A stretch of DNA of 64,000 bases from NCBI GenBank assembly GCA_947631505.1, contig CANRLR010000011.1, positions 12,063 through 76,062 of the forward strand. Reading direction: 5' to 3'. Shown here one piece after another: positions 1 to 35,962 of the stretch; within the stretch, counting starts at the first letter, position 1; the number at the start of each line of letters is the position of its first letter. The translations under genes and the position numbers were made by a program. The notes beneath the pieces were generated by a model. The model was not told the DNA's origin and made no database searches. It saw only the letters and a list, made by a program, of their open reading frames with translations. This DNA comes from an uncultured Lachnospiraceae bacterium. Lineage in GTDB: Bacteria > Bacillota > Clostridia > Lachnospirales > Lachnospiraceae.

Positions 1-2456
1 AGTTTTCCATTGATAAAATAATTTTCACAATCCTCTACATAATACAGCTCACCAATCTGGTCATTCCATTTAAGCTGCACCTTATCGCTTATCTGATAGA
101 TAAAATGGCTCATTTCTGCACGAATTACAGACAGTTCATACTGTTTTTTACTATAATCAATTTCTAAATTCTGCAATATTGATTTATACCTTTCCCATAC
201 CTGTGAGCCTTCCAGTTCGCTTCCATCTTCTTTCTGAATAGTCCGGTTAAAAAACACATCTACTCCATATGGATTAAAATCAATTAATTTCATATGCTTT
301 GCAATGTCCGGATGTTCCAGACAGGCTACCGTCTTCTTATAAAAGTCATCTATATTTTCTTTCGTATATTGCTGGTTGCAGCTTCGGATTGTTTCAATAA
401 TCCGGTCATAGTATTCTCCGAAATCTTTTGTATTTAAAATCTCTTGCATATGTTTGGATGGAAGTCGAATTTCTTCACTGATCCGATAATCATTTTTATA
501 TATTTTCTGAGGTTTATCATAGTCAAAAAAGTAAGCAATGCCGCTCCGTTTACTAGAACGGTTGATTCTTCCCAAAAATTGTTCCTCACTGTCTAATATT
601 GAGATGTCCTTATAGCCAATATCCATATCAATATCCACGCCAGCCTCCACTACCTGAGTTGCTATCAGTATGCAAGGTTCCGCTTCCTTTTTTACTTCTT
701 GCAAAATACAGTTTCTTTCATACATATTATCATCACCTGTCAGCAGATAGACCGGAACAGAAATCTTTCCGTTCTCCTTTTCCCTGATAACTTCCTTATA
801 AAATAATCTGGCAGTCTTTTTTTTGATAAATTCTACTACTATCTTTTTATTAACTTCGCTCTTTGCAATCAATTCTTCCAGCACGCAGTCTAAAAGATTA
901 TCCGGCTTTTCTTCCAGCAAATGAAAATCCAGCACTACCCGTTCTCGAAATAAGAAATGATGAAAATAATGATTTCTATCTTTTATCAAATGAACGGGTT
1001 CTTCTATACCCTCAGAAAGTTTATTCAGATCTGGCAGCGTTGCTGACATCAGAATAATTTTCAAATTCAGAACATCCGCAAACACATGGAAAAATTCTAT
1101 TATTTCCGTCCAGATCTGATTATTCAGATTCTGTACCTCATCCAACACAATTACGCTGTTCATCAACTGATGGAAGCCAAATATTTTTTCCTGTTTTTCC
1201 GAAAACATAGTATCAAAGAGACTGACACTGGTCGTCAGGATAAAAGGATAATTAAGGAACTGCCGGTTTAACAGTCCTTTTTCATAAAGATGCTGATTAT
1301 CCTCTTCTTTTATTTTTTCTTTTTTCCCGGGCAGCTTCATCGGAGTAATGGAATTTATCACGGCTATCTGCTCCATCAATTTCTCTTCTTTTCCGAATGC
1401 GTCGGTTAATGTCTGAATATTTTGTTCCACCAGTGTATTGAACGGATATACATAATAAATTTTCTGCAGACCGCATTTCTCCGATAACAGAAAACTAAGA
1501 TTCATGGCAGTATTACTCTTCCCACTGCCGGTAGGTGCCTCTAGATAAAAAACAGGCTTCTTGTAATTCTCTTTAAGGACTTCTTCTGTTTCCCAGAACA
1601 TCTCATTTCTTAACTGATTGATATCTTCTTCTCCCTTTTTGCCTTTTCCTGCTTTAATTTTCCGGTACAGTTTTCCGCCTTTATATGCCTTGAGAAAATC
1701 CTTTATGCTGCCCAGCTCTCCAAACTCTTCTATCTGCACTCCAGACATAAATTCCGAAGTAGCATAATAATCCGAAGCAACTAACAAAGAATACAATAAT
1801 CTTTCATAGCAGTACAGATACCGTGATTCCTGTTTCTGAATTTTCCCACTCTGTACCCAACGTTTTTCCTTTATAACTTCCTTTTCTAATTCTCCAGATT
1901 CTAAATTGATTTTTCCCAGTCCCAGTATATCCTCTTCTAAAACCTCCACAATATCTCCCGCTCTGTCCCCTTCAAAGGAACTTAGAAAGTCAAGATAACA
2001 ATTAAAATCCGAATGATGCCGGGAAATCACATAGGCATTTACAAAAATCAGATGCCGAATTTTACACATAGCCGTTTTATCTCCTATGCCTTTTATTTGT
2101 GAAAGAAAGCAATCCAGATACAATATGGCAGAAAACAGCGAATGACCACTTCTCAAACTCTCTTTCGTCTCGCTATCCACATATATTCTCTGTCCCATTT
2201 TATCCCGCTGAAAAACCGGATTAATCTTTCCATAATCATGATAACGGGGTACACAAAAAAATATTTCTCTCAAAAGTAAAGGATGCTTTTCCTCTTCACC
2301 CTTCAAATAAACTTCCAAAAAACGGCTATATCCTCTTTCTATCTCCTTCTTTTGACATATTTTTTGAAAATATGCTTCTGTTTTCTCCGTATGTTCTTTT
2401 AATGTTTCCCGTTGCTCTTTCGTTCGATGAGCAAAGTTATTATCCCAATCAATCAT
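1..2456 (-). CDS. cas3: CRISPR-associated helicase/nuclease Cas3 (HD + SF2), 3' end beyond the window; absent from the ORF track
   Basis: Hand translation from ATG 2456 (RBS AGGAGG ~2461-2467): MIDWDNNFAHRTKEQRETLKEH...YHDYGKINP (HD), LEAPTGSGKSN (Walker A, ~1510-1545), VIVLDEVQN (DExx, ~1130-1160). The frame is still open at position 3; not every codon between these motifs was checked. Confidence 0.93.
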   Translation of the reverse strand, partial: MIDWDNNFAHRTKEQRETLKEHTEKTEAYFQKICQKKEIERGYSRFLEVYLKGEEEKHPLLLREIFFCVPRYHDYGKINPVFQRDKMGQRIYVDSETKESLRSGHSLFSAILYLDCFLSQIKGIGDKTAMCKIRHLIFVNAYVISRHHSDFNCYLDFLSSFEGDRAGDIVEVLEEDILGLGKINLESGELEKEVIKEKRWVQSGKIQKQESRYLYCYERLLYSLLVASDYYATSEFMSGVQIEEFGELGSIKDFLKAYKGGKLYRKIKAGKGKKGEEDINQLRNEMFWETEEVLKENYKKPVFYLEAPTGSGKSNTAMNLSFLLSEKCGLQKIYYVYPFNTLVEQNIQTLTDAFGKEEKLMEQIAVINSITPMKLPGKKEKIKEEDNQHLYEKGLLNRQFLNYPFILTTSVSLFDTMFSEKQEKIFGFHQLMNSVIVLDEVQNLNNQIWTEIIEFFHVFADVLNLKIILMSATLPDLNKLSEGIEEPVHLIKDRNHYFHHFLFRERVVLDFHLLEEKPDNLLDCVLEELIAKSEVNKKIVVEFIKKKTARLFYKEVIREKENGKISVPVYLLTGDDNMYERNCILQEVKKEAEPCILIATQVVEAGVDIDMDIGYKDISILDSEEQFLGRINRSSKRSGIAYFFDYDKPQKIYKNDYRISEEIRLPSKHMQEILNTKDFGEYYDRIIETIRSCNQQYTKENIDDFYKKTVACLEHPDIAKHMKLIDFNPYGVDVFFNRTIQKEDGSELEGSQVWERYKSILQNLEIDYSKKQYELSVIRAEMSHFIYQISDKVQLKWNDQIGELYYVEDCENYFINGK

Positions 2457-2472
2457 ATTCTCCTCCTGAGCT

Positions 2473-2507
2473 TACAGCCGGAGGGAACGTCATTCCATCC
2501 GGCTGTA
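2473..2507. other. Strong inverted repeat between cas5 and cas3
   Basis: TACAGCCGGA (2473-2482) / TCCGGCTGTA (2498-2507) with an inner GGAA/TTCC pair and no U-tract. Confidence 0.8.
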
Positions 2508-2530
2508 TCATTCTTACTGTATCGGTTATA

Positions 2531-3259
2531 CTATTTTTCTGCATCCTCCGGCTGCAGTATGGCAATTGCCTTGTCTTCAATCCGCAGTACCATCCCCTCA
2601 TAATTCGCCAATTCCGAATCTGTCTGAACCATTTTCCTCAACTCATACATTCCATTTTCCATCAATCCCCACGGAAGATTTTCTTCATAGTAAAAAGAAC
2701 TTTCGCCCGGTTCCGCGAAAGAGGCTTTTTCCCTTTCAAAAAGGCTGTCGATGGACAGAACTGAAAGCATTCTCTCTCCTTCCACAATCCTGACGTCTGA
2801 GATATCTGCCGGATGCTCATTTTTCCCAAGATACGGTACATAGACACATTTTCGATTCAATAAATTTGAGGCAAGTTTTTCACTTATTTCATCCTCTGCT
2901 ATGACATATATATCCCATGATGGATGTTCCAGCCACTGTTCCTTTACAATCAAATTTCCCCCTTGTTCAAAAGACGCATAACCGACAGAATTGTTAAATA
3001 TCTGTATCTTTTTCCGGCAGATTCCATGCTTGGGCAATACTCCGATTTGCAAACCGTTTAGCACTTTATAATACTCTGGGAATGCGGTTTCGTTTTTCTT
3101 CTTCGTCCAGCCATATCCGGAAAGCCCAAGGACTGCACCAAACAGACCAAGCAATGCCGCCCTGTGAATGTTACCATATGTAAAATAGCAATCACTGTTT
3201 ACATCCGGGCGCTTAAAAAATGCTGTCACGCCACTTAAATGAAAGGTAAGTATTCTCAT
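2531..3259 (-). CDS. cas5: Type I-B Cas5 (Cas5b)
   Basis: N-terminal TAFFKRPDVN...YFTYGNIHRAALLGLFGAVLGLSGY and YLGKNEHPA; position between cas7 and cas3. Confidence 0.92.
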   Translation of the reverse strand: MRILTFHLSGVTAFFKRPDVNSDCYFTYGNIHRAALLGLFGAVLGLSGYGWTKKKNETAFPEYYKVLNGLQIGVLPKHGICRKKIQIFNNSVGYASFEQGGNLIVKEQWLEHPSWDIYVIAEDEISEKLASNLLNRKCVYVPYLGKNEHPADISDVRIVEGERMLSVLSIDSLFEREKASFAEPGESSFYYEENLPWGLMENGMYELRKMVQTDSELANYEGMVLRIEDKAIAILQPEDAEK

Positions 3260-3262
3260 GGG

Positions 3263-4192
3263 CTACACCTCTTTGCCAGTAAATATATGAAACATGTCCG
3301 CATTTTCTACATCTGTAGTCAATACGGTTTTTGCCGGATTATAATAAATTTCTATTTTCTTTATTTTATCCGATAACTCATTTAAAATATTTCCGCAGTT
3401 CAGAGAAATCTCATTTTTTTCTTCTCCTTTTTGAAAGGTAATGTATTCGGATAAATTGGGAAGATACAAATCCATATCCGTTTCTACAAAAAGTGCAAAT
3501 TCATTCTCACATCCTTCCTTTGCATTGGTTGCATAGGCAGTGACCGCACACAATGCTGTCCTTTTAAAGATTTTGTAATCCTCTTCGGTATATCCTTCTG
3601 TCACTCCCATTTCAACGAATTCTTTATAGGCCATCGGATTAATGACAAAGGGATAAAAGTAGTGAGCTTCATTACTGACGATTTTGGTCCCCAAGGAAGA
3701 ATTTTTGGCATCCTCGTCTTTTGCATCTTTAAACGGTGACAATATCTGCTGTTCATCCGGACACGTCCCGTCATATTTATTAAACCCTTGTCCAAACTGG
3801 ACTGCCCCTGTTATCGAAATATTACTCTTTTCTTCTGCAAAAGTAGCACCAAAATTTTTTACGTCAATCGCACGAAACAGCTTCGTAAGAATATTTTTCA
3901 TATCCGATTCTTTCGATAGTTCTTCTCCAAATATGTACTCATATCTTTCTTTCAATGTTCTAGGGCTGAGCACGATAGACTTGTCCTTTTTGTTATTGGG
4001 GAACCACATTGATTTTATATATAAAACCGGTTTACCTTCCTCATCCCACATTTTTTTCATTGGATATTTTAAGGCTTTATCACTGCCATAGGTAATACCA
4101 TCTGACGTTGTCTTTGGATATCCTGTAAAGTCTGCATTCCAATTCGCCATTATTGACGATACACCGATTACTCCATATACTCTCTTATTCAT
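3263..4192 (-). CDS. cas7: Type I-B Cas7 (Csh2)
   Basis: MNKRVYGVIG...ANWNADFTGYPKT...GSDKALKYPMK, DVKNFGATFA, ITGAVQ. The start at 4192 overlaps the end of cas8. Confidence 0.92.
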   Translation of the reverse strand: MNKRVYGVIGVSSIMANWNADFTGYPKTTSDGITYGSDKALKYPMKKMWDEEGKPVLYIKSMWFPNNKKDKSIVLSPRTLKERYEYIFGEELSKESDMKNILTKLFRAIDVKNFGATFAEEKSNISITGAVQFGQGFNKYDGTCPDEQQILSPFKDAKDEDAKNSSLGTKIVSNEAHYFYPFVINPMAYKEFVEMGVTEGYTEEDYKIFKRTALCAVTAYATNAKEGCENEFALFVETDMDLYLPNLSEYITFQKGEEKNEISLNCGNILNELSDKIKKIEIYYNPAKTVLTTDVENADMFHIFTGKEV

Positions 4193-4577
4193 AATCTTTC
4201 TCCTCTCCATCTTTCTTGTAAATTAAATTGTTACTGCAAAACCCCGCCCACATCATATCCTGATTTACCTCGCACTCTTTGTTGTAACTACAAATCATCG
4301 CAAATAAATATTTTACCCGTTTCGAACCAATCAGCTGTATATCATAATCATATTTGACAAACAATCTCTGCAGCTTCTCTTTTATCGTTTTAACAGTTTT
4401 TGCTGCAATAAACGGATTTATCATCGACATTTTTTTATTGGCAGCTTTACTTCTTGAAAAGAGATAATACAAGAGTTGTCCCACCCCATAAAAAAACTCT
4501 TCTTCCGTTTCAAATTGCTCTTCCCCATTACCATTAATCTTCTGCTCAACTAACTGTCTGATTTCACTTATTTCCAT
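4185..4577 (-). CDS. cas11: Putative internally translated Cas11 small subunit (130 aa) within cas8b1
   Basis: In-frame ATG at 4577 preceded by AAGGAGG (4583-4589): ...AAATAAGGAGGGCGTT-ATG GAA ATA. Confidence 0.7.
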   Translation of the reverse strand: MEISEIRQLVEQKINGNGEEQFETEEEFFYGVGQLLYYLFSRSKAANKKMSMINPFIAAKTVKTIKEKLQRLFVKYDYDIQLIGSKRVKYLFAMICSYNKECEVNQDMMWAGFCSNNLIYKKDGEEKDYE

Positions 4578-5966
4578 AACGCCCTCCTTATTTCTCTTAA
4601 AATAGCTCTGTAATGACAACCGCATATTTAATCTTTGGGATACCAGATCCAGACTATTTTCCCGGACTGCACTTAAAACTGCTCTCTCCGATACCCGGTC
4701 CAAAATTTCCGGTAATCCATTCAGCTCACCTAAATGCATCCAGCGAAACATACTTTTTCTTGCTAATAAAATATTTTCTTTCAATGTGCTGTCCGTAGTT
4801 TTTAAATCCTTCGCCTCAGTAAATAAATTTTTCTGTAACCAGCCGGAAAACAGAACCGCATCCACTACTCCCGCCATCTGTTCCAGCTTGTGATAACGAC
4901 CATATTCTGCTTTCTGATACTTCTCACTCCGATTGATATAATCATGATAACGAAAAGGCGGCACTAACTTTATCGGATATCGGGAAACATAATCCACTTC
5001 CTGTATTTTTACTTCTTTTTCCTTTTGAAGGCGTAGATATATTCCATGAGTTTCCCTGTCTGGCAATTTACCATTTTGATATGAATCAATCTCATTCCTA
5101 ATACAATCGAAATAGACATTTACCTCTCCCATTGCAGCCAATGCCGTCAAATAATCAAATAATTTTTTCTGCCGCAGAACATCTTCTCTGGAAACCATGT
5201 ACGGAATCGTCTGCATCCGCGTTTTGTGCTCTAAATACACTTTTTTAGAATTTAATCCCATATTATTATTCGGCATTCCCCAAATGCACCCCTGATACAT
5301 CACATTATAATCATTGCTGTTAAAAATATTGGGATACAGATAGCGTAATCCTTCTGTTTCATACAACCGCTTTGTCTCTTCTTTCTTTTCACCCAAAACA
5401 AAAAAGATTTTAAGATAGTCTTTCCCCTCCGGCACAATTCCCTGTTCTGAAAGGGAAAAAATATGTTCCGTAATCCATTTTTGGCACTTCCCCAATAATC
5501 CGGCATTAACCGCTCCTAATTCCTCCTCGGCTGCCTCATATAATTCCCTCGTCTTCTTTTTTCCCTGATACTTCTGGGCTGGATTTAAAAGGACGCGATA
5601 ATACCCGTCAATAATCTCTTCTGTCAATTTCCCATTATCAATACTGTCTTTCTTAATGAAAAAAGACAGAAAATTATTGCTGTGAATTATTTTTTTACTA
5701 TCTATCGGCTTGTTCATGTCAATCAGTGAACTATAATAATCATAATATTGTATCGCCTGAAAGGACAATTGATTTCTTCCCTCCAGCTCTTTTGTACGCT
5801 TATTGTAATGTATCTCAACATCCTTTACCAGCACTTGTCCACTTTCTACATCTACTAAAATATAAGTTCCATCCTTTGGCACATACCGGTCAAGAACAAG
5901 ATCCCTGCCTTCCTCTCTTTTTTTTCTTTCAAAAGCCTCAAATACTTCCAAACAATCTTGAAGCAA
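4185..5966 (-). CDS. cas8b1: Type I-B large subunit Cas8b1 (Csh1)
   Basis: 593 aa, TTG start behind GGAGGTGA; YYDYYSSLIDMNKPID..KIIHSNNFLSFFIKK and C-terminal FFYGVGQLLYYL; lies between cas6 and cas7. Confidence 0.88.
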   Translation of the reverse strand: MLQDCLEVFEAFERKKREEGRDLVLDRYVPKDGTYILVDVESGQVLVKDVEIHYNKRTKELEGRNQLSFQAIQYYDYYSSLIDMNKPIDSKKIIHSNNFLSFFIKKDSIDNGKLTEEIIDGYYRVLLNPAQKYQGKKKTRELYEAAEEELGAVNAGLLGKCQKWITEHIFSLSEQGIVPEGKDYLKIFFVLGEKKEETKRLYETEGLRYLYPNIFNSNDYNVMYQGCIWGMPNNNMGLNSKKVYLEHKTRMQTIPYMVSREDVLRQKKLFDYLTALAAMGEVNVYFDCIRNEIDSYQNGKLPDRETHGIYLRLQKEKEVKIQEVDYVSRYPIKLVPPFRYHDYINRSEKYQKAEYGRYHKLEQMAGVVDAVLFSGWLQKNLFTEAKDLKTTDSTLKENILLARKSMFRWMHLGELNGLPEILDRVSERAVLSAVRENSLDLVSQRLNMRLSLQSYFKRNKEGVMEISEIRQLVEQKINGNGEEQFETEEEFFYGVGQLLYYLFSRSKAANKKMSMINPFIAAKTVKTIKEKLQRLFVKYDYDIQLIGSKRVKYLFAMICSYNKECEVNQDMMWAGFCSNNLIYKKDGEEKDYE

Positions 5967-5970
5967 ATTC

Positions 5971-6681
5971 TCACCTCCGATACCATTTACAGTTTACATA
6001 TCCGCTTCCCCGGGTATTATTGTTTCCCATCCCAACTCCAAGGGCAAGATATGCCAGTTTCTGACTTGTTTCATTTTCCGCTACATACAGATCAAATTTA
6101 TCCCCCAAAAGTTTAATTTCCTTATAGTTCGAGGCAATCGGGCCTTTATTCAAAAACTTTATCTCGCGGATAAAATCAAAATCTTCCTTCAACCTGCCTC
6201 CCATAAAATAGTTATATTTTTTAATCAGATTTTCTGTCAGATACCTCTGATACTCCTGAATTCCTACATGATCCCTCCAATATCCGCCACCTTCTGCCTT
6301 GACAATTACTGCAGTAATCGAATATAACTTCTCAATTAAATGTTCGGGAATAACTTTTACACAATTCGTAAGACATTTAAAATCAGCATTATATTCGTTC
6401 ACGAAACTTTCTTGAAAAAAATGTTTCAAGCCGACATCAATGGTCCGAATCGAAAAGGAATACACCTGTCCGCTCTTATATATTCCCTCCTTCTCCACCG
6501 GATACAGACAACTGAATGTATACGGCTTATACCCTTTCCCTTTATGCATTTCCAACAGTTCAGGCACTTTTCCCATTACCTCATCCATAAAGGAACATAA
6601 TTTTTCCTGCAGATTCTCCCAACGAATATCCCGCAGAAGAAAAACTTTCGTATCAATTTGAAAGACTTTTAAATCCTGCAT
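5971..6681 (-). CDS. cas6: CRISPR endoribonuclease Cas6
   Basis: C-terminal Gly-rich loop LGVGMGNNNTRGSGYV; YKPYTFS; first gene of the cas operon. Confidence 0.9.
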   Translation of the reverse strand: MQDLKVFQIDTKVFLLRDIRWENLQEKLCSFMDEVMGKVPELLEMHKGKGYKPYTFSCLYPVEKEGIYKSGQVYSFSIRTIDVGLKHFFQESFVNEYNADFKCLTNCVKVIPEHLIEKLYSITAVIVKAEGGGYWRDHVGIQEYQRYLTENLIKKYNYFMGGRLKEDFDFIREIKFLNKGPIASNYKEIKLLGDKFDLYVAENETSQKLAYLALGVGMGNNNTRGSGYVNCKWYRR

Positions 6682-6716
6682 GATTTCCTCCTTTCTTTCA
6701 TTTTAATGATAAGTCT

Positions 6717-6745
6717 AATATAACTAGCATCAAAGTAATTGTCAA
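6717..6745 (-). promoter_or_regulatory. Sigma-A promoter for the cas operon
   Basis: TTGACA (6745-6740), 17 nt, TATATT (6722-6717). Confidence 0.7.
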
Positions 6746-6751
6746 TGAGTT

Positions 6752-6973
6752 CTAATTCACCAAAAGAGGCAATTTTTCTATCCAATCCACAATTATTTCC
6801 CAAAAATCAAACTTCAAAATAACTCCCGCAATCACAGTTCCAACAATACTAATTAGCATTGAATTGTGTCCTATATCTTTTTCTTTACAATTAATGGCTT
6901 TAGACTTACCTACCGTTCCTTTTTTCTTCATCCCGTTGCACTTTACTATTTTTTTATTCAACAATTTCACCAT
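6752..6973 (-). CDS. Small basic protein with one C-terminal hydrophobic segment (hypothetical)
   Basis: 73-aa ORF with an RBS-like GAGAAGG, its own promoter, and segment MLISIVGTVIAGVILKFDFWEII. Confidence 0.55.
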   Translation of the reverse strand: MVKLLNKKIVKCNGMKKKGTVGKSKAINCKEKDIGHNSMLISIVGTVIAGVILKFDFWEIIVDWIEKLPLLVN

Positions 6974-6992
6974 CCTTCTCTTTTTTTAACTT

Positions 6993-7021
6993 AATATAAT
7001 ACATAAGTAAATATCTGTCAA
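6993..7021 (-). promoter_or_regulatory. Sigma-A promoter upstream of the 73-aa ORF
   Basis: TTGACA (7021-7016), 17 nt, TATATT (6998-6993). Confidence 0.65.
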
Positions 7022-7202
7022 TACTTTTTTTATTGTATATTGAATCGGTTTTTGCAAATATAAAAAGAAATATACACCCTGTGTTTCTATTCATTAACAA
7101 ACTTTTTTTATTTTATATGTTTCAATGTCTCTCAGACTGCTATTCATATTTTTGATTTTTTTATTGTACTACAACTCATAATTATATGCAAGTAAAAACA
7201 CT

Positions 7203-7218
7203 ACTATGCTATGAAAAT
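7203..7218 (+). repeat. Left copy of the flanking direct repeat (probable target-site duplication)
   Basis: ACTATGCTATGAAAAT, identical to 35939-35954. The core 14 bp is 7204-7217 if the element ends are TG...CA. Confidence 0.85.
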
Positions 7219-7374
7219 GAAAATGTCAACCTTTTTTTGTGATATTTTTCTAGTTCTTTACAATTTGTTACTTTTCACAATATAATTGTGACGTTTTTGT
7301 GCATTTTGGATATTTTTTGATACAACAAAAGAACTGCCTGTTCGCCAGTCGGAAAAACATATAGTTCGTATCTA

Positions 7375-8415
7375 CTATGTTACAAGTGCAAGTTCCTTTT
7401 GGAACTCCTGATTTGCAGTACGAAAGCCAAATAACTTTCTAGGATAATTATTCATCCAGTTCTCAACCGCCTTCACTTCCTCATCCGTCATGTGGTCAAA
7501 ATTACTTCCTTTGGGAACCTTCCGCCTGACAAGCCGATTCTGATTTTCATTTGTTCCTCGTTCCCACGATGAATACGCATGACAGTAATATACTTCTGTT
7601 CTGTTCCCACCATACACAGATTTCTCCATCTCTTCAGAAAAGGAGAATTCCGTTCCATTATCTACTGTAATACTTTTAAATACCTTTTTGAAATCATCTT
7701 TCCATAGTCTTTCCAATTCATCTAATTTCTTAACAACCTCACAAGCTGAATGATTCGGCAACTTAAATAGGATTTCTTTCCTAGTCTTCCGCTCGGTAAG
7801 AACAAGCAGCGAATTTTTACTTACACCACGTTTGCCAACAACCGTATCCATTTCCCAGTGCCCAAATTCTTTTCTGTTTTCAATTTTTTTAGGACGTTTA
7901 GCTATGCTTTTACCTGCACTTGCTCTTTTTTGCCTTTTAATATGTCTATAATTCCGTTTCTTCTTTCTTTTAACTGGTAAATCTTTATTGGATAATCGAA
8001 AGAAGATCCCTTTATCGATGTAACTATATAAAGTTGCTACACATATCTTTGTTTTGAATTCCTTTCCCTTTCCAGTTTTTTCTAATTCTCCCAAAACAGC
8101 AGATGGAGAGTAATCTTCTTCTACAATTTTCTTTTCCAAATATTCTGCATAATCATAATCATTAGAAATTTTTAAACCGGTTCCCCTCGTACTCACATTT
8201 TGTTGATATTTTTCTTCTGCCAAATCCGGAGAATATCGCCATTCTTCCGTATAGTCACTATTTCGGTGCAGGTACTTTCCTCTTTTTAGTTCATTCGTAA
8301 TAGTATTTGGATGACAATGCAAACATACTGCTATTTCACCCTTTTTCATTCCTTTTCGTAGTAGGTTTTCAAGTAAAAGCCTATCTTCATATCGTAAATG
8401 TCGATATCCTTTCAC
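7375..8415 (-). CDS. IS30-family DDE transposase (intact)
   Basis: N-terminal HTH (RHLRYEDR...HPNTITNELKR); GHWEMDTVVG, SITVDNGTEF, WERGTNENQNRLVRR catalytic motifs; GTG start. Confidence 0.93.
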   Translation of the reverse strand: MKGYRHLRYEDRLLLENLLRKGMKKGEIAVCLHCHPNTITNELKRGKYLHRNSDYTEEWRYSPDLAEEKYQQNVSTRGTGLKISNDYDYAEYLEKKIVEEDYSPSAVLGELEKTGKGKEFKTKICVATLYSYIDKGIFFRLSNKDLPVKRKKKRNYRHIKRQKRASAGKSIAKRPKKIENRKEFGHWEMDTVVGKRGVSKNSLLVLTERKTRKEILFKLPNHSACEVVKKLDELERLWKDDFKKVFKSITVDNGTEFSFSEEMEKSVYGGNRTEVYYCHAYSSWERGTNENQNRLVRRKVPKGSNFDHMTDEEVKAVENWMNNYPRKLFGFRTANQEFQKELALVT

Positions 8416-8490
8416 AACTGCTCCCCCTCATCATTGGTTATATTGTTAATTTCGCTTATTATTTAAAGAAATTAGAAAAGAACATCTTAC

Positions 8491-8667
8491 TTATTCTTTC
8501 TCCTCTGCTATTTTTTTTAATTTTTCTATTATTAATTTCTCTACATATTGGGGTGGTTTTCTCTTCCCTGTTTCCCAATTTTCAATGGTTCTTTTTGGAA
8601 TTTCAAACCTTTTTGACATTTCTAATTGTGTTAGTCCTGCTTGCGTTCTGTAATCTTTTATTGTCAT
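8491..8667 (-). CDS. Xre/Cro-like HTH transcriptional regulator (58 aa)
   Basis: MTIKDYRTQAGLTQLEMSKRFEIPKRTIENWETGKRKPP; RBS GGGGGA before ATG 8667. Confidence 0.88.
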   Translation of the reverse strand: MTIKDYRTQAGLTQLEMSKRFEIPKRTIENWETGKRKPPQYVEKLIIEKLKKIAEEKE

Positions 8668-8753
8668 TGTTTTATTCCCCCTTTTTATAATTATAGATTT
8701 TGACAATATTCATCTTTGCGGAATCTTCGTCCTTTTTTTCATCTTATGCACAC

Positions 8754-8782
8754 ACAATATCACTCATTGAGTGATATGTCAA
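8754..8782 (-). promoter_or_regulatory. Promoter of the xre-transposase unit with a perfect palindromic operator in its spacer
   Basis: TTGACA (8782-8777), 17 nt, TATTGT (8759-8754); ATATCACTCA-T-TGAGTGATAT at 8757-8777. Confidence 0.75.
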
Positions 8783-8853
8783 GTATTATATTATTATTTT
8801 GTCTTCTAATATCAAAGTTTTTCAAGCTGGGGGCGGATTGTTTTCTATCTTTA

Positions 8854-11058
8854 CTAAGAAAGAGAATTCATTGCCATATAGGCTTCTTTCTTCCGGAACA
8901 TTTCCTCTTCACTCAAAAGCGGATGTATAATGCTCTTAATAACATCTTCCGGCACTTGCAGTTTCTTCAATTCCTTTACCACACTTCTCCTTGTATCGTC
9001 CAACTGGTCAGAGGCAAAGATATCTAAAAGTGGCAGCCGCTCATAACTTTCCCGATACAGCCGTTGTTTCTCTTCTCGTTCCGCTTCCTGTTCCTTATGG
9101 TACAGTTCCTGCATACGTTCCAACGAAAGATTTACCTTGTCAGTATCATTTATTTTTTTGGCAAGTCGATCTAAATCCATGTTCATAAAATCAAATGCAT
9201 TTATCGTATAATGCCGGATTGAAGAATCCTTTTCCGACATCTTTTTGTAGTATTCCATGGATTGGGAATTCAAAAGGCGAATACTGTCCTCTTCCGCTTT
9301 CCGGTGTTCCTGCACTTTATACTTACCATACGATAATGCTTTGTTATAGATTTCATGTTCCCATGGAAACCATTTCTTATCCCGGAGCGGTTCTTCCCCC
9401 CGGACAAACAGGATACATTCATCATCCGGCAGAAGCCGAACCTCATACTCCATCATTAGTTCTCTTCCTAATACATCAAAGTTTTCACTATGTGAACCAG
9501 ACGTGCCGGTGCTTTCTCCTGTCGTTTTTTTATCTACGGTCCATTTTCCGAGTAATTTTGTTATGTATTCAAAGGTACTTTCTTCATTTCCTCCCAAATA
9601 TAGGAACGTATCACAGTTACCGACAACTCCCTCCCATGCTCCATCTGCAAACAGAGTTTTCATCTGTGCTAGGGATTGCAGCATAGGAACACAATAAATT
9701 CCCCGGCTTCGGCAGGTTGCCATTATCTTATCAAAGTTTGCTGGCATTTTAATATTGGCAAACTCATCTAACCAAAATCCAACATCAATAGGAAGTCTTC
9801 CACTATACAATCGAGATTGATAATAAAGTTGGTCAAAAAGCAGTGTATAAACCATTCCGGGAACAAAATTGTAAGTGATATCTTCGTCCGGGATTACCAT
9901 AAAGAGAAAACTTTTTGTTGTTTCATCTCCATCCTTTCCCACACCGAATTCATCCAACGGAATATCATTACTGGTAAAGATTTCCAGCAATTCCTCATTA
10001 TCGAACGGCTGCATGCGTCCATTCACGGTTGCTAGTACGCTTCGTCTAGTATCTTCCGGAGAGCTTAAATATCTGCGGTATGTTTTTACTGCTGGATGAT
10101 TCGGCTCACTTTTTTCCAACTGTTTCATCCGGATATCTAGTTTAGTCGGAGTATCCGGCTCTTCAAATTGTGCTTCATCCAGCAGATACATAATGGATTT
10201 CATATTCTTTTCTAAAATGGTCAGTTCTCCAGTTTCTAAATTTTTAGACACCGTCGGACACTCTCTCCATACATACAAAAAGAGAGCTTCCAAAAACATT
10301 CGTTCCGATTTTTCCCAAAAAGGGTCTGCTGTCGAATTTTTTATTTTCTCCGAATCTGTATTTTGTATCAAGTTGGAAACCAACTTCGATATGTCTTGAC
10401 GTTTTCGCAGGAAAAGAAACGGATTAATATGCATACTCTTTTCAAAGTCAATCAGGTTGAGCGTATATACTCTTGTATTTTCTTGTTCTTGAAGATAATT
10501 TCCTAATTCCTCTAACGTAGAACCTTTGGAATCCGTTATCACGTTAGATCCGTAAGCATTTAATAAGTTGGGGGTTAATAGGAAAGAGGTTTTACCAGCA
10601 CCGGAACCACCAACCACAAAGGTATTGTTATTTCGCAAGGTGGACGCAGCATAACGGAATCGTATATTCTCCGATAAAATCCGGTTATTTTTCTTATTTG
10701 TATCTGCATACTTTTGGTTAAATTTACTTATATCTCCCCATTTTGCGGAACCGAACTCGTTGCCCGGCATACGGTTGTTATTCATTTTGATGTACTGATT
10801 TGCAGTAAAAGTAAACCATAACAATACAACCAGCAGTAAAAATGGTTTGGTCTTTTCGTTCCAACAGGAAAGGGGGTTTTTTAAACAATAGACCAGTTTT
10901 TCTTCCACATTTTCCATTGTAACACCGTCTAAGGCAAACAAACCGCTGATACAAAGTGCTAGATACAATAGAAAAAGAAGAACCAGTACACTTATTATTA
11001 GGAAATTGCGTAAACGGATTTTCCTTGAATCCGTAACATTACTTACTCTTTTTTTCAT
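8854..11058 (-). CDS. virD4: VirD4/TraG-type conjugative coupling protein
   Basis: N-terminal TM segments, FGSAKWG, Walker A VVGGSGAGKT, FWLDEFANI, LQSLAQ. Confidence 0.93.
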   Translation of the reverse strand: MKKRVSNVTDSRKIRLRNFLIISVLVLLFLLYLALCISGLFALDGVTMENVEEKLVYCLKNPLSCWNEKTKPFLLLVVLLWFTFTANQYIKMNNNRMPGNEFGSAKWGDISKFNQKYADTNKKNNRILSENIRFRYAASTLRNNNTFVVGGSGAGKTSFLLTPNLLNAYGSNVITDSKGSTLEELGNYLQEQENTRVYTLNLIDFEKSMHINPFLFLRKRQDISKLVSNLIQNTDSEKIKNSTADPFWEKSERMFLEALFLYVWRECPTVSKNLETGELTILEKNMKSIMYLLDEAQFEEPDTPTKLDIRMKQLEKSEPNHPAVKTYRRYLSSPEDTRRSVLATVNGRMQPFDNEELLEIFTSNDIPLDEFGVGKDGDETTKSFLFMVIPDEDITYNFVPGMVYTLLFDQLYYQSRLYSGRLPIDVGFWLDEFANIKMPANFDKIMATCRSRGIYCVPMLQSLAQMKTLFADGAWEGVVGNCDTFLYLGGNEESTFEYITKLLGKWTVDKKTTGESTGTSGSHSENFDVLGRELMMEYEVRLLPDDECILFVRGEEPLRDKKWFPWEHEIYNKALSYGKYKVQEHRKAEEDSIRLLNSQSMEYYKKMSEKDSSIRHYTINAFDFMNMDLDRLAKKINDTDKVNLSLERMQELYHKEQEAEREEKQRLYRESYERLPLLDIFASDQLDDTRRSVVKELKKLQVPEDVIKSIIHPLLSEEEMFRKKEAYMAMNSLS

Positions 11059-29768: not shown

Positions 29769-29830
29769 CTTTACAATTATAGTTTACTACACTGTTCTAT
29801 GACTTGCAACGACATTTCAGGTACACTTTT
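29769..29830 (-). repeat. 62-bp duplicated promoter-like element, copy 1
   Basis: Matches 30989-31050: a 23-bp block containing minus-strand TATAAT, 9 variable bp, then a 30-bp block with 1 mismatch. Confidence 0.85.
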
Positions 29831-32707: not shown

Positions 32708-33616
32708 CTATTTTTTCAATCTGTTATAAGTTAAAACTTCATAACCGTTCGCATTGCAGAAAATATCATCAATAATTGTCATTTGCTTTTGTCTGCTATA
32801 GTAATTTTTTACTACTGTAGCACCGCCACCACACAGAATCAGGTTTCCGCTGTCAATTTTAGCATTTAGCAACTTCATTACCTCTTGTACATGGTGCTTT
32901 ATCATATCCTTAATAAATTGGACTTTCTTTTCCTCTATGGACACCTTTTCCTTTTGAAAAATACACTGGATATCCTCTTCATCAACAGCTTCCTGATATT
33001 TAGTTAAATAATATTTGGTTATACTGTCAATCCAGTCCAGTGTTCCTTTCTTGTCTATGGAAAAGCATAAATCATAGAACGGTTTTCCTCTCCGGTAAGT
33101 GATAACATCGATTGTCCGGGAACCGATATCTGCCACCGATAAGGTCTTACCCTTGTATTTTCCCATCTCCGTGGCCATTACTGGAAGCCCCTGCGGATAT
33201 ACATATACGTCTTTCAGTTCAATTTGGTACTTTATTCCCTCAAAACAAAAGGTCAGGTTCTTCTTCTTTAACAGGTAGTCATGGAAATTCTCCTTTTGTG
33301 CCGAAAAGAACGAATAAGGCAATCCCACCGAAAGCACTACATTCTTTGCACTCTTTATTTGGTTATGCTTCAGTTCCTTTGCCATTGCTGCCAATGTCAG
33401 ATTGTAGTAATCCTCGGTCAATGTCTTATCGGCAAGTTGCTCGGAACGAATCTGCCCCACAACATAAGTCCGGTGGTTCAACTCCAAAATGTCTTCATCA
33501 AAAGGGGGACGTATCGGAACTTCTTCAATACCGCTTTTTATAATACTGTTAGCACTTTTTATGTAGCCATAACCATGGTCAATGCCAATTATCGTATATT
33601 CTCCTAATTTCTTCAT
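32708..33616 (-). CDS. parM: ParM/StbA actin-like partition ATPase
   Basis: IIGIDHGYGYIKS, VYVYPQG, VADIGSRTIDV, LCGGGA. Confidence 0.9.
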   Translation of the reverse strand: MKKLGEYTIIGIDHGYGYIKSANSIIKSGIEEVPIRPPFDEDILELNHRTYVVGQIRSEQLADKTLTEDYYNLTLAAMAKELKHNQIKSAKNVVLSVGLPYSFFSAQKENFHDYLLKKKNLTFCFEGIKYQIELKDVYVYPQGLPVMATEMGKYKGKTLSVADIGSRTIDVITYRRGKPFYDLCFSIDKKGTLDWIDSITKYYLTKYQEAVDEEDIQCIFQKEKVSIEEKKVQFIKDMIKHHVQEVMKLLNAKIDSGNLILCGGGATVVKNYYSRQKQMTIIDDIFCNANGYEVLTYNRLKK

Positions 33617-34269
33617 AACTTTATATCCTTTCCATCCAGTATTAGTTCCATTTGCCCGCTTAAAACTGGATTATCTTTTAGTTTCTCCCGCTTTTTTGGT
33701 TCCTTTGCCACGACATCAACAGTTGACTGCAAAGCAAGCTGGTAATTGGTCAAATCCGAGTTGTATCGGTTTAACATATCTAACAATGCCTGTTTCCGGA
33801 TTCCCAATACCTTACGATGGGAAAGGTCAAGGTCATATTCGATACACTCCCACTTTTCCTTTTTTACATACAAACGGTTCAATATCTCTTTACTGGTAGA
33901 ATCAAGGGTATCATAAACCAATTCCAACCGATGATAATGCTCGGATTTTTCAAGCAGAAGCTGGTATTTTATAGACAATTCTTCCCTATGTTCTTGTATC
34001 ATTTTTTGCGTTACCGATAATAAATCACCGAGGTCTTTCTTTTTCCCGGAGCCGGAACCACTGGTATCGTCATAATGAATACCAACTTGTATTGTCGTTA
34101 TAATATCTCTCACGACAGCACTGTTTTGGTTATTTAATTCTAAGATATCTCTTCGTACTTCCAACATTTGTTCATACAGCTCTTTGGTACAAGCTGGATG
34201 GCTTATATAATATATAACATTTTCAAGACTGGTATAATACCGGACTTCCTTAGTCGCAATACCTTCCAT
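33613..34269 (-). CDS. Putative transcriptional activator (ArpU/RinA or sigma-70 region 4-like C-terminal HTH)
   Basis: YDTLDSTSKEILNRLYVKKEKWECIEYDLDLSHRKVLGIRKQAL. Confidence 0.6.
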   Translation of the reverse strand: MEGIATKEVRYYTSLENVIYYISHPACTKELYEQMLEVRRDILELNNQNSAVVRDIITTIQVGIHYDDTSGSGSGKKKDLGDLLSVTQKMIQEHREELSIKYQLLLEKSEHYHRLELVYDTLDSTSKEILNRLYVKKEKWECIEYDLDLSHRKVLGIRKQALLDMLNRYNSDLTNYQLALQSTVDVVAKEPKKREKLKDNPVLSGQMELILDGKDIKL

Positions 34270-35268: not shown

Positions 35269-35466
35269 CTAAACTAATAATTGTGCTTTAATGGCTTTGT
35301 ATTCTTCCCTTGACATTCCGCTACGTGAAAACTCAATTGCGATTGTATTTTTATGACGATTAAGAATACAAGCAATTCCCTCTGATTTACAACCATCTTG
35401 TATCATGTGTTCCATAATTACTCGATCCTTATAGGTAATCTGTTTGGATTTGCTAGGTGTAGCCAT
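35269..35466 (-). CDS. Stand-alone IS30-type helix-turn-helix protein (65 aa)
   Basis: KQITYKDRVIMEHMIQDG...IACILNRHKNTIAIEFSR; 15/41 identical to the transposase N-terminal HTH by hand alignment; RBS GGGGGTG. Confidence 0.8.
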   Translation of the reverse strand: MATPSKSKQITYKDRVIMEHMIQDGCKSEGIACILNRHKNTIAIEFSRSGMSREEYKAIKAQLLV

Positions 35467-35615
35467 GGATATCACCCCCTTTTCTTTTCCCTCCAAGTCT
35501 TGCCCCTTCGCCCAAAAGACGAAAGGGTATCACAAAACTCTTTTGGAGGAAAATGCTATAAAAATATATAAAACTCCCCTATAAAATATATAGAGGTTAG
35601 TTTTTACATAATTTT

Positions 35616-35786
35616 TTATTCCTCGTATATTGTGTTTGAATAGACAGAAACACTATCTGCATCAGGTATTTTATTTGTATATTTGTTTACAGGAAACTTC
35701 ACTAACCGCCTTGTAACAGTCTTTCTTCCGTCCAGTATCACCCGGACCATGTCCGTGTTAAATAATATTGGTAATACTCTACTCAT
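35616..35786 (-). pseudogene. 56-aa fragment of a phage-type protein (PILFNTEMVRAILDGRKTxTRR-like motif, ASCH-like)
   Basis: Hand translation MSRVLPILFNTDMVRVILDGRKTVTRRLVK...; RBS AAAGGAG; shorter than the family members I recall. Confidence 0.55.
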
Positions 35787-35828
35787 TTATTTCACGCTCC
35801 TTTATCATCTTTCTATCCAATAAAAAAA

Positions 35829-35923
35829 GAAGTTACGAAAAGTCTTAATAACTCTTCATAACTTCTAATTCTTTTCCTTATTATCTAAGAAGTTGTAAAG
35901 TGCTATTTGCTTTTCACAACTTC
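35829..35923. repeat. Two related subterminal palindromes at the right end
   Basis: GAAGTTACGAAAAG-N9-CTCTTCATAACTTC (35829-35865) and GAAGTTGTAAAG-N9-CTTTTCACAACTTC (35889-35923). Confidence 0.7.
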
Positions 35924-35938
35924 ATTATAAAACTTACC

Positions 35939-35954
35939 ACTATGCTATGAAAAT
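35939..35954 (+). repeat. Right copy of the flanking direct repeat
   Basis: ACTATGCTATGAAAAT, identical to 7203-7218, 8 bp from the GH13 stop codon. Confidence 0.85.
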
Positions 35955-35962
35955 CTCTTTCC

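Follow-up and report, generated by a model that had tools for sequence, protein, structure and literature searches.

A stand-alone paralogue of the DNA-binding domain of an IS30-type transposase as a possible end-binding regulator of a Lachnospiraceae conjugative element

Introduction

Small DNA-binding proteins accompany several transposases. InsA of IS1 and OrfA of IS3/IS911 bind terminal repeats, repress an end-located promoter and inhibit or modulate transposition. In phage Mu, the repressor c and the MuA transposase compete for shared sites, setting quiescence versus transposition. For IS30 we know of no separate helix-turn-helix (HTH) protein; its canonical transposase reportedly has two N-terminal HTH motifs, a finding ascribed to work by Nagy et al. 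in 2004. Whole conjugative elements can also be moved by DDE transposases. TnGBS of Streptococcus replicates in a plasmid-type manner besides being conjugative, and has its insertion sites immediately upstream of promoters; ICE6013 makes 3-bp duplications. To our knowledge, DDE-transposase conjugative elements are poorly understood compared with integrase-based ones, the control of their excision is not known, and DDE transposases are not known to use directionality factors. ICE6013, from Staphylococcus aureus, is a conjugative element moved by an IS30-like enzyme (PMC3942029). In the searchable literature we found no description of a stand-alone transposase-HTH partner for IS30 elements, ICE6013 or TnGBS.

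Here we analyse a 65-aa protein encoded near one end of a conjugative element in an uncultured Lachnospiraceae bacterium; the window is the whole 64,000-nucleotide stretch of DNA that was analysed. Like InsA and OrfA, the protein is small and has a transposase DNA-binding domain without a catalytic domain, and we infer its function from sequence. InsA and OrfA are, however, the upstream frame of the transposase gene and frameshift-linked to it, whereas here the gene is separate and anciently diverged, lies 27 kb away at the other end and belongs to an IS30-type conjugative element. As in the Mu repressor c/MuA pair, a stand-alone protein carries a DNA-binding domain paralogous to the N-terminal domain of the transposase, competition between the two being only proposed in our case. 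The Mu domains are winged helices and their shared sites form an internal operator/enhancer, whereas ours is a four-helix IS30-type HTH and the proposed sites lie at the ends. On this comparison the closest working parallels to the 65-aa protein would be IS1 InsA, IS911 OrfA and the Mu repressor/MuA pair, and it is a member of none of these families.

With IS30 the element shares its transposase family, a 2-bp spacer in abutted ends, a promoter assembled from the −35 box of one end and the −10 box of the other, and an N-terminal HTH_38 domain. The junction promoter of IS30 drives the transposase, whereas here it faces the small HTH gene and a 28-kb operon, and the target duplication is 15 bp as against 2–3 bp in IS30. 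Like ICE6013 and TnGBS this is a conjugative element moved by a DDE transposase; that of TnGBS is Mutator-like and of an unrelated family whereas ours is of IS30 type, promoter-upstream insertion being common to both. PDB entry 2lvs is likewise a small protein made only of HTH_38-type HTH, although it has two tandem HTH units and no transposon link. We take 2lvs to be an archaeal CRISPR-repeat-binding protein, in which case it would be a precedent for repeat binding.

Results

The boundaries of the element were determined by aligning the junctions at two insertion sites. Its main features are as follows.

7219–35938, minus strand: whole conjugative element, 28.7 kb (insertion-site comparison)
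7375–8415, minus strand: IS30-family DDE transposase, 346 aa, GTG start, last gene of the element (NCBIfam, Pfam)
7203–7218, no strand: target-site duplication, left copy (direct repeat; junction alignment)
35939–35954, no strand: target-site duplication, right copy, ACTATGCTATGAAAAT on the plus strand (exact direct repeat)

An exact 16-nt direct repeat, present at 7203 and 35939 only, comprises a 15-nt target duplication and one ambiguous nucleotide. In metagenome contigs the identical element occupies a second site, between an ABC-transporter gene and rplS, with its own 15-nt duplication, and a 75%-identical relative was found at four different sites. Classic perfect terminal inverted repeats were absent both around the transposase (6600–9000) and between the two ends. 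All genes of the element lie on the minus strand, in the order 56-aa fragment ORF, small HTH gene, 171-aa gene, SSB, 218-aa regulator-like gene, ParM-like gene, DUF6017 Rep, surface proteins (adhesin), sortase, VirB4, relaxase, TraG, XRE and transposase. The 346-aa transposase scores 232 bits against NCBIfam transpos_IS30 (cut-off 80) and contains HTH_38 at residues 4–46 together with rve (Pfam). The target duplications, the second insertion site and the architecture conserved in relatives show that the transposase belongs to the whole 28.7-kb element, as a sequence-only reading of this DNA had proposed. The features of an ICE6013-like element, namely an IS30-family transposase at one end, internal conjugation genes, a target duplication and ends joined through a short spacer, are present, the joined ends in relatives only.

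Two further observations concern neighbouring genes. The 218-aa protein (33613–34269) matches phage transcription-regulator families (phrog_36, E=9e-7; phrog_248) and is, by these matches, a better candidate than the small HTH protein for activating duplicated internal promoters. Immediately to the left of the element, positions 3–6681 of the window hold putative type I CRISPR-associated genes (Cas3-like helicase, Cas5, Cas7, Cas8 and Cas6-like), recognized from their translations.

The small HTH gene lies near the end of the element furthest from the transposase.

35269–35466, minus strand: 65-aa stand-alone IS30-type helix-turn-helix protein (ORF list; HTH_38; dN/dS)

The ORF encodes MATPSKSKQITYKDRVIMEHMIQDGCKSEGIACILNRHKNTIAIEFSRSGMSREEYKAIKAQLLV. 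Its ATG is preceded by the ribosome-binding site (RBS) GGGGGTGA and it ends in TAG, with the ATG of the next gene 18 nt further on, bearing out its initial description as an ORF with its own RBS and stop. The sole Pfam match with E<0.1 was HTH_38 (PF13936; E=1.9e-5), whose 24.7 bits fall slightly short of the 27-bit gathering cut-off; precomputed Pfam data assign PF13936 both to this protein (flagged faint) and to its 75% relative, and its orthologues score higher against HTH_38 than it does itself. The best PHROG was phrog_4646, ‘transposase’ (profile positions 3–67, E=7.9e-8), followed by short phage ‘DNA binding protein’ families. Across its own 2.7-Mb genome the only other match with E<0.01 was the N-terminus of the resident transposase (E=1e-4, 36% identity), and a recount of the original hand alignment against transposase residues 5–45 again gave 15 identities in 41 positions. 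The HTH_38 and phrog_4646 matches and the single further match in the genome support the reading of the small protein as a paralogue of the transposase DNA-binding domain. Both carry the recognition-helix pattern T-I-x-x-E-x-x-R, NTIAIEFSR in the 65-aa protein aligning with NTITNELKR in the transposase.

Pfam found no rve match in the 65-aa protein, which thus lacks the DDE catalytic domain of an IS30-family transposase and, like InsA and OrfA, has the DNA-binding domain alone. The frameshift-coupled arrangement of InsA/OrfA was not found, the gene being separate from the transposase gene, 27 kb apart and with its own RBS. When the transposase was used as a query around the ORF it matched the HTH stretch only, and the 171-aa gene downstream had no family match in Pfam or PHROGs, in agreement with the earlier statement that no DDE remnant follows. 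The suggestion of a directionality factor fared less well: there are no Xis-like features, Pfam, NCBIfam and PHROGs gave no match to an excisionase-type family (MerR-like/HTH_17), and the recombinase of the element is a DDE transposase. A tblastn search of plasmid and phage collections with the protein returned no match.

An AlphaFold2 model of the 65-aa protein has four helices (12–24, 28–34, 39–49 and 58–64) and a mean pLDDT of 84. Foldseek comparison of this model with the PDB yielded nothing significant (best E=0.24), the closest, non-significant neighbours being LuxR/GerE and sigma region 4 domains, including sigma region 4 bound to −35 DNA. In a profile search 2lvs was the only natural protein among the strongest PDB matches (E=5.5e-9, two stretches); the entries outscoring it are designed repeat proteins.

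A word-indexed homologue search recovered only the protein itself and one 75% relative, so an exhaustive profile search was needed. This gave 104 matches, nearly all of 60–200 aa and spanning query positions 5–63, a range that takes in the C-terminal Y-x-A-x-x-A-Q helix; only two or three were of transposase length. The nearest relatives are about 100 clusters of short stand-alone proteins, and the small proteins are without the ∼13-residue insert (..HRNSDYTEE..) found in the transposase subfamily before its Y-S-x-x-x-A-Q motif. These relationships overturn the idea of a recent, dedicated copy of the resident transposase HTH; judged by its sequence relatives, the 65-aa protein is an old paralogue of the transposase DNA-binding domain and neither a recent copy nor a remnant. 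The wider short HTH_38 family includes phage ‘DNA binding proteins’, and the fold occurs beyond transposon ends.

The search for orthologues of the small HTH protein and the transposase covered 301 same-family and 401 same-order genomes. In all 12 elements (11 genomes) with both genes on one contig, the small HTH orthologue lies 27–45 kb upstream of an orthologous transposase (49–63% identity) on the same strand; several more genomes carry the two on different contigs. The paired architecture was seen in G000, G143, G171, G130, G193, G230, G049 (both copies), G086, G291, G642, G409 and G664, and intact small HTH orthologues occupy the equivalent position in >12 genera. Element order is conserved as right end, small HTH gene, variable interior, transposase and left end; counting from the right end, the small gene is always the first or a near-first ORF, and the gene order always closes with the transposase before the left end. 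Since the genes directly downstream of the small HTH gene vary among distant relatives, it is tied to the element end and not to the cargo. Against its 75%-identical relative the gene has a dN/dS of 0.11 at dS 1.3, inside the range of its neighbours (0.03–0.22). Conservation in 12 of 12 one-contig elements and this dN/dS, the two properties by which the gene was originally to be checked, both speak for it, and by comparative sequence analysis it is functional, conserved and under purifying selection.

We then compared the element ends and the region between the right end and the small gene.

35886–35938, minus strand: right terminus of the element (two-site comparison)
7219–7300, minus strand: left terminus of the element (junction alignment, repeat and motif searches)
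35828–35866, minus strand: 17-pair terminator-like hairpin with T-run, directly inside the right end (hairpin search)
35616–35786, minus strand: 56-aa ORF, fragment of a longer phage-type protein (PHROG match)
35576–35596, minus strand: terminator-like hairpin after the 56-aa ORF (hairpin search)
35467–35620, minus strand: structured leader upstream of the small gene, with a TTTTGTGATA motif copy (35528–35537) and RBS GGGGGTGA (RNA folding)

Sixteen elements could be delimited by target duplications of 14–17 nt. All 16 have an outward TTGACA 6–7 nt from the left terminus and TAnAAT at nucleotides 10–15 of the right tip, and in each a common subterminal motif stands in register at both ends, ∼19–26 nt from the tips. 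This motif is ..(T/G)CGACA in most relatives and TTGTGA(A/T) in the element of the window. There, the right terminus has TATAAT at 35924–35929 (nucleotides 10–15 from the tip), TTGTGA at 35914–35919 and the palindrome GAAGTTGTGAAAAG..CTTTACAACTTC, its one TTGTGA and a TTGTAAAG partner together being palindromic. The left terminus has an outward-facing TTGACA at 7224–7229 and four copies of the TTGTGA / TTGTAAAG motif (7237, 7256, 7275 and 7286). At the left end a 70-bp stretch contains three TTGTGA copies, compared with a window background of 0.66 per kb; TTGTGA also occurs once in the leader of the small gene, 60 nt before the ATG, and is absent from the promoters near 29769 and 30989, which the sequence-only reading had named as binding probes. 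The terminal 53 nt of the right end are 100% identical in the 75% relative, despite a gene dS of about 1 and a coding divergence of ∼24%.

The leader (35467–35620) has an RNA fold z-score of −5.5, and none of 200 shuffled sequences folded equally well. The equivalent right-end hairpins of relatives are formed by inverted copies of the end motif of the respective element, and from this arrangement the first right-end hairpin could double as DNA operator and RNA terminator. The 56-aa ORF matches positions 68–103 only of the 277-position profile phrog_874 (E=2.9e-12); our reading of it is an ASCH-like fragment, and it is missing from this position in most relatives. A separate candidate operator was rejected: the 10-mer AGTTGTGAAA occurs twice in the window only, in the right-end motif (35912–35921) and at the GTG start of the transposase (8410–8419), but is not conserved at the transposase starts of relatives, and the match at the transposase start is probably coincidence.

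In 18 metagenome contigs of relatives (loci L162–L179) the two ends are abutted with a variable 2-nt spacer (TG, GA, AC, AA, GT, GG, CT or TA), which by its sequence we read as the signature of circular or tandem intermediates. Abutted ends with this spacer assemble TTGACA-N17-TAnAAT (TAGAAT or TAAAAT), pointing into the small gene. The transposase gene ends ∼160 nt before the junction, and where the small HTH ORF was detected (14 contigs) it starts ∼170 nt after the junction in 11 and 450–830 nt after it in the other three. The small gene would thus be the first ORF that the predicted junction promoter expresses in most relatives with joined ends. For the joined ends of the window's own element, the metagenome contigs gave 0 matches. 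The sequence-only reading had placed the small gene at the end opposite the transposase, which is right for the integrated element but not for the circular or abutted form in relatives, where both genes flank the junction: lying at opposite ends of the integrated element, the two genes are separated in the circle by the junction promoter.

The recognition helices of both proteins were compared with the end motif. Cognate small protein/transposase pairs were more alike than shuffled pairs in the recognition helix (p=0.001) and in the rest of the HTH (p=0.007). The helices and the motifs at the ends compare as follows.

11 elements: small protein H-R-(A/D)-T-I-Y (R or K); transposase H-R-S-T-I-Y; ..GAC at both ends in 9
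Element of the window: small protein HKNTIA; transposase HPNTIT; ..TGTGAA / ..TGTGAT
G049b: small protein HI; transposase HV; ..GCGAA
G584: small protein TP; transposase HI; ..GCGAA
G664: small protein AL; transposase HL; ..TGCAA

In each of the 11 elements whose transposase helix contains Arg, the small protein has Arg or Lys. The exceptions to ..GAC among them are the left end of G171 (..GAACA) and the right end of G086 (..CAAC); ..(C/T)GAC or ..CAAC stands at both ends in 10 of the 11, and in G171 at the right end only. The four non-Arg transposases (P, V, I and L) go with ends in ..TGTGAA, ..GCGAA or ..TGCAA, and three of their cognate small proteins have I, P or L; in the window's own pair the small protein has Lys where the transposase has Pro. 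In G086 a T-to-S change is present in both proteins, and helix changes without a match in the partner occur in G097 (TLY versus TIY) and G642 (K versus R). When these counts were put to Fisher tests, the end DNA was associated with the small protein at p about 0.009 and with the transposase at p about 0.0007, values that, as in the co-variation tests generally, ignore phylogeny, the non-Arg cases being perhaps 3–5 independent events.

Gene conversion as the source of the co-variation was rejected, since cognate genes are 50–59% identical in nucleotides and share identical runs of ≤9 nt. Cognate similarity is not confined to the recognition helix, so host composition or history held in common may contribute to it, and AT-rich codon bias could explain part of the other shared changes in the window's pair (Asn, loss of Tyr). 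Arg with G:C and an aliphatic residue with A:T is the pattern that direct base contact would predict. The co-variation of helix and end motif is consistent with the end-binding role first suggested for the small protein, which gains comparative support from it.

A 6.5-kb mini-element in the same genome (contig 21, 14272–20792; loci L027 and L028) bears on the role of the small protein in insertion. Flanked by the 15-nt duplication CCCGATACGCAAAAC, it encodes ParA, ParB and a CAP/SpaA protein, and its IS30-like transposase shares 52% identity with that of the window. As usual, the small HTH gene comes first; it is apparently frameshifted after codon 2 and has a degenerate recognition helix. The target duplication is clean and at the usual distance from a −35 box. 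Given a degenerate small gene and an intact duplication, the small protein may be dispensable for insertion, in which case a regulator fits better than an essential subunit; the mini-element may, however, have been mobilized in trans by the full element.

That distance was surveyed in the window (7140–7218 and 35939–35960) and at loci L041, L054–L062, L066, L115, L121 and L123. Of the 16 delimited insertions, 11 have a −35-like hexamer ∼11 nt beyond the target duplication and, 17 nt after it, a −10 box; in the window the hexamer reads TTGCAT, and at the second site, before rplS, TTGACT. In G086, G193, G664 and G584 a −35-like box could not be placed at the usual distance. By these comparisons most insertions of the IS30-type family lie upstream of promoters at a constant distance.

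Two relatives showed further arrangements. In G086 (locus L060) the stretch from just after the transposase stop to the left end contains a second small HTH_38-type ORF (..RLSYNDRKKIEMMLSKGFSKTKIAEEMGISRFILYYELNRCYRGKYSADQAQKTIG), placing a small HTH at both ends. On contig 1 of G642 (about 23000–58200; loci L120–L121) two family elements stand almost in tandem, the right end of the second copy a few hundred bp past the left end of the first, after a putative tRNA gene.

Discussion

We propose that the 65-aa protein is a stand-alone DNA-binding partner of the IS30-type transposase that would bind the element ends and modulate both the transposase and the junction promoter, with a net negative effect; we give this reading as a whole a probability of about 0.45. 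Of its parts, binding to the end repeats is probable in view of the motif distribution and the co-variation, and should the protein bind, its net effect would likely be negative. It would recognize the same subterminal repeats as the transposase, the candidate sites TTGTGA(A/T)A comprising one and one variant at the right end, three and one variant at the left end and a single copy in the leader of its gene. Having no catalytic domain, it would be expected to compete with the transposase at the ends, or to reshape transposase–end complexes, and it would occupy sites flanking the junction promoter. Excision would switch this promoter on, the small protein would be made first and would then damp both the promoter and further end cleavage, while in the integrated state low levels of it would keep the element quiet.

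The protein might instead be an ordinary transcription factor of the operon, repressor or activator, with operators unrelated to the transposase sites and a likeness to the transposase that merely reflects old ancestry. The small gene does head a long co-directional operon, after hairpins and a structured leader, short HTH_38 relatives in phages are annotated as DNA-binding proteins, and the fold has a non-significant resemblance to LuxR/GerE and sigma region 4 regulators. An ordinary regulator would not, however, be expected to have a recognition helix that co-varies with the transposase helix and the end motif, nor a position beside the end that is conserved while the downstream genes vary; moreover, clustered repeats that could serve as sites occur only at the two ends and in its own leader, with none near 29769 and 30989. 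We regard this explanation as somewhat unlikely. Least credible is that the ORF is a functionless, decaying leftover of a second transposase gene. It is short, consists of the HTH only and scores below the Pfam gathering threshold, but a dN/dS of 0.11, its own RBS, the lack of a DDE remnant, intact orthologues at the same position in >12 genera and closest relatives that are full-length short proteins make such an origin scarcely believable.

A required positive subunit of transposition, supplying a second HTH in trans and aiding end synapsis or targeting 11 bp upstream of −35 boxes, would account for the observation that the element's transposases begin directly with a single HTH_38, as against the two HTH motifs of canonical IS30. 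Insertion is strikingly position-specific relative to −35 boxes, the best (non-significant) structural neighbours include sigma region 4 on −35 DNA, and the circle junction has the small gene on one side and the transposase gene on the other. The mini-element nevertheless has a clean 15-nt duplication at the usual −35 distance with a frameshifted, degenerate small gene, unless it was mobilized in trans, and element-specific co-variation favours element-specific sites over a universal −35 target, so that we consider a required subunit quite unlikely.

Beyond the end-binding partner that we favour, a bolder and, in our estimation, unlikely possibility is a two-component switch built from one duplicated DNA-binding domain, in which both proteins read the repeats flanking a circle-only promoter and the paralogue acts as a ‘lysogeny repressor’, or else as a subunit fixing the insertion point exactly 11 bp upstream of −35 boxes. 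As a ‘lysogeny repressor’ the small protein would govern how often excision occurs, immunity to re-excision and the burst in which conjugation genes are expressed. Were either the switch or the placement role true, it would represent a regulatory principle so far undescribed for DDE-transposase conjugative elements. The association of Arg with ..GAC and of non-Arg residues with ..GAA may amount to a readable protein–DNA recognition rule for IS30-type HTH domains, and a small HTH gene behind a circle-only promoter would offer a testable control circuit for elements across gut Lachnospiraceae and other Clostridia.
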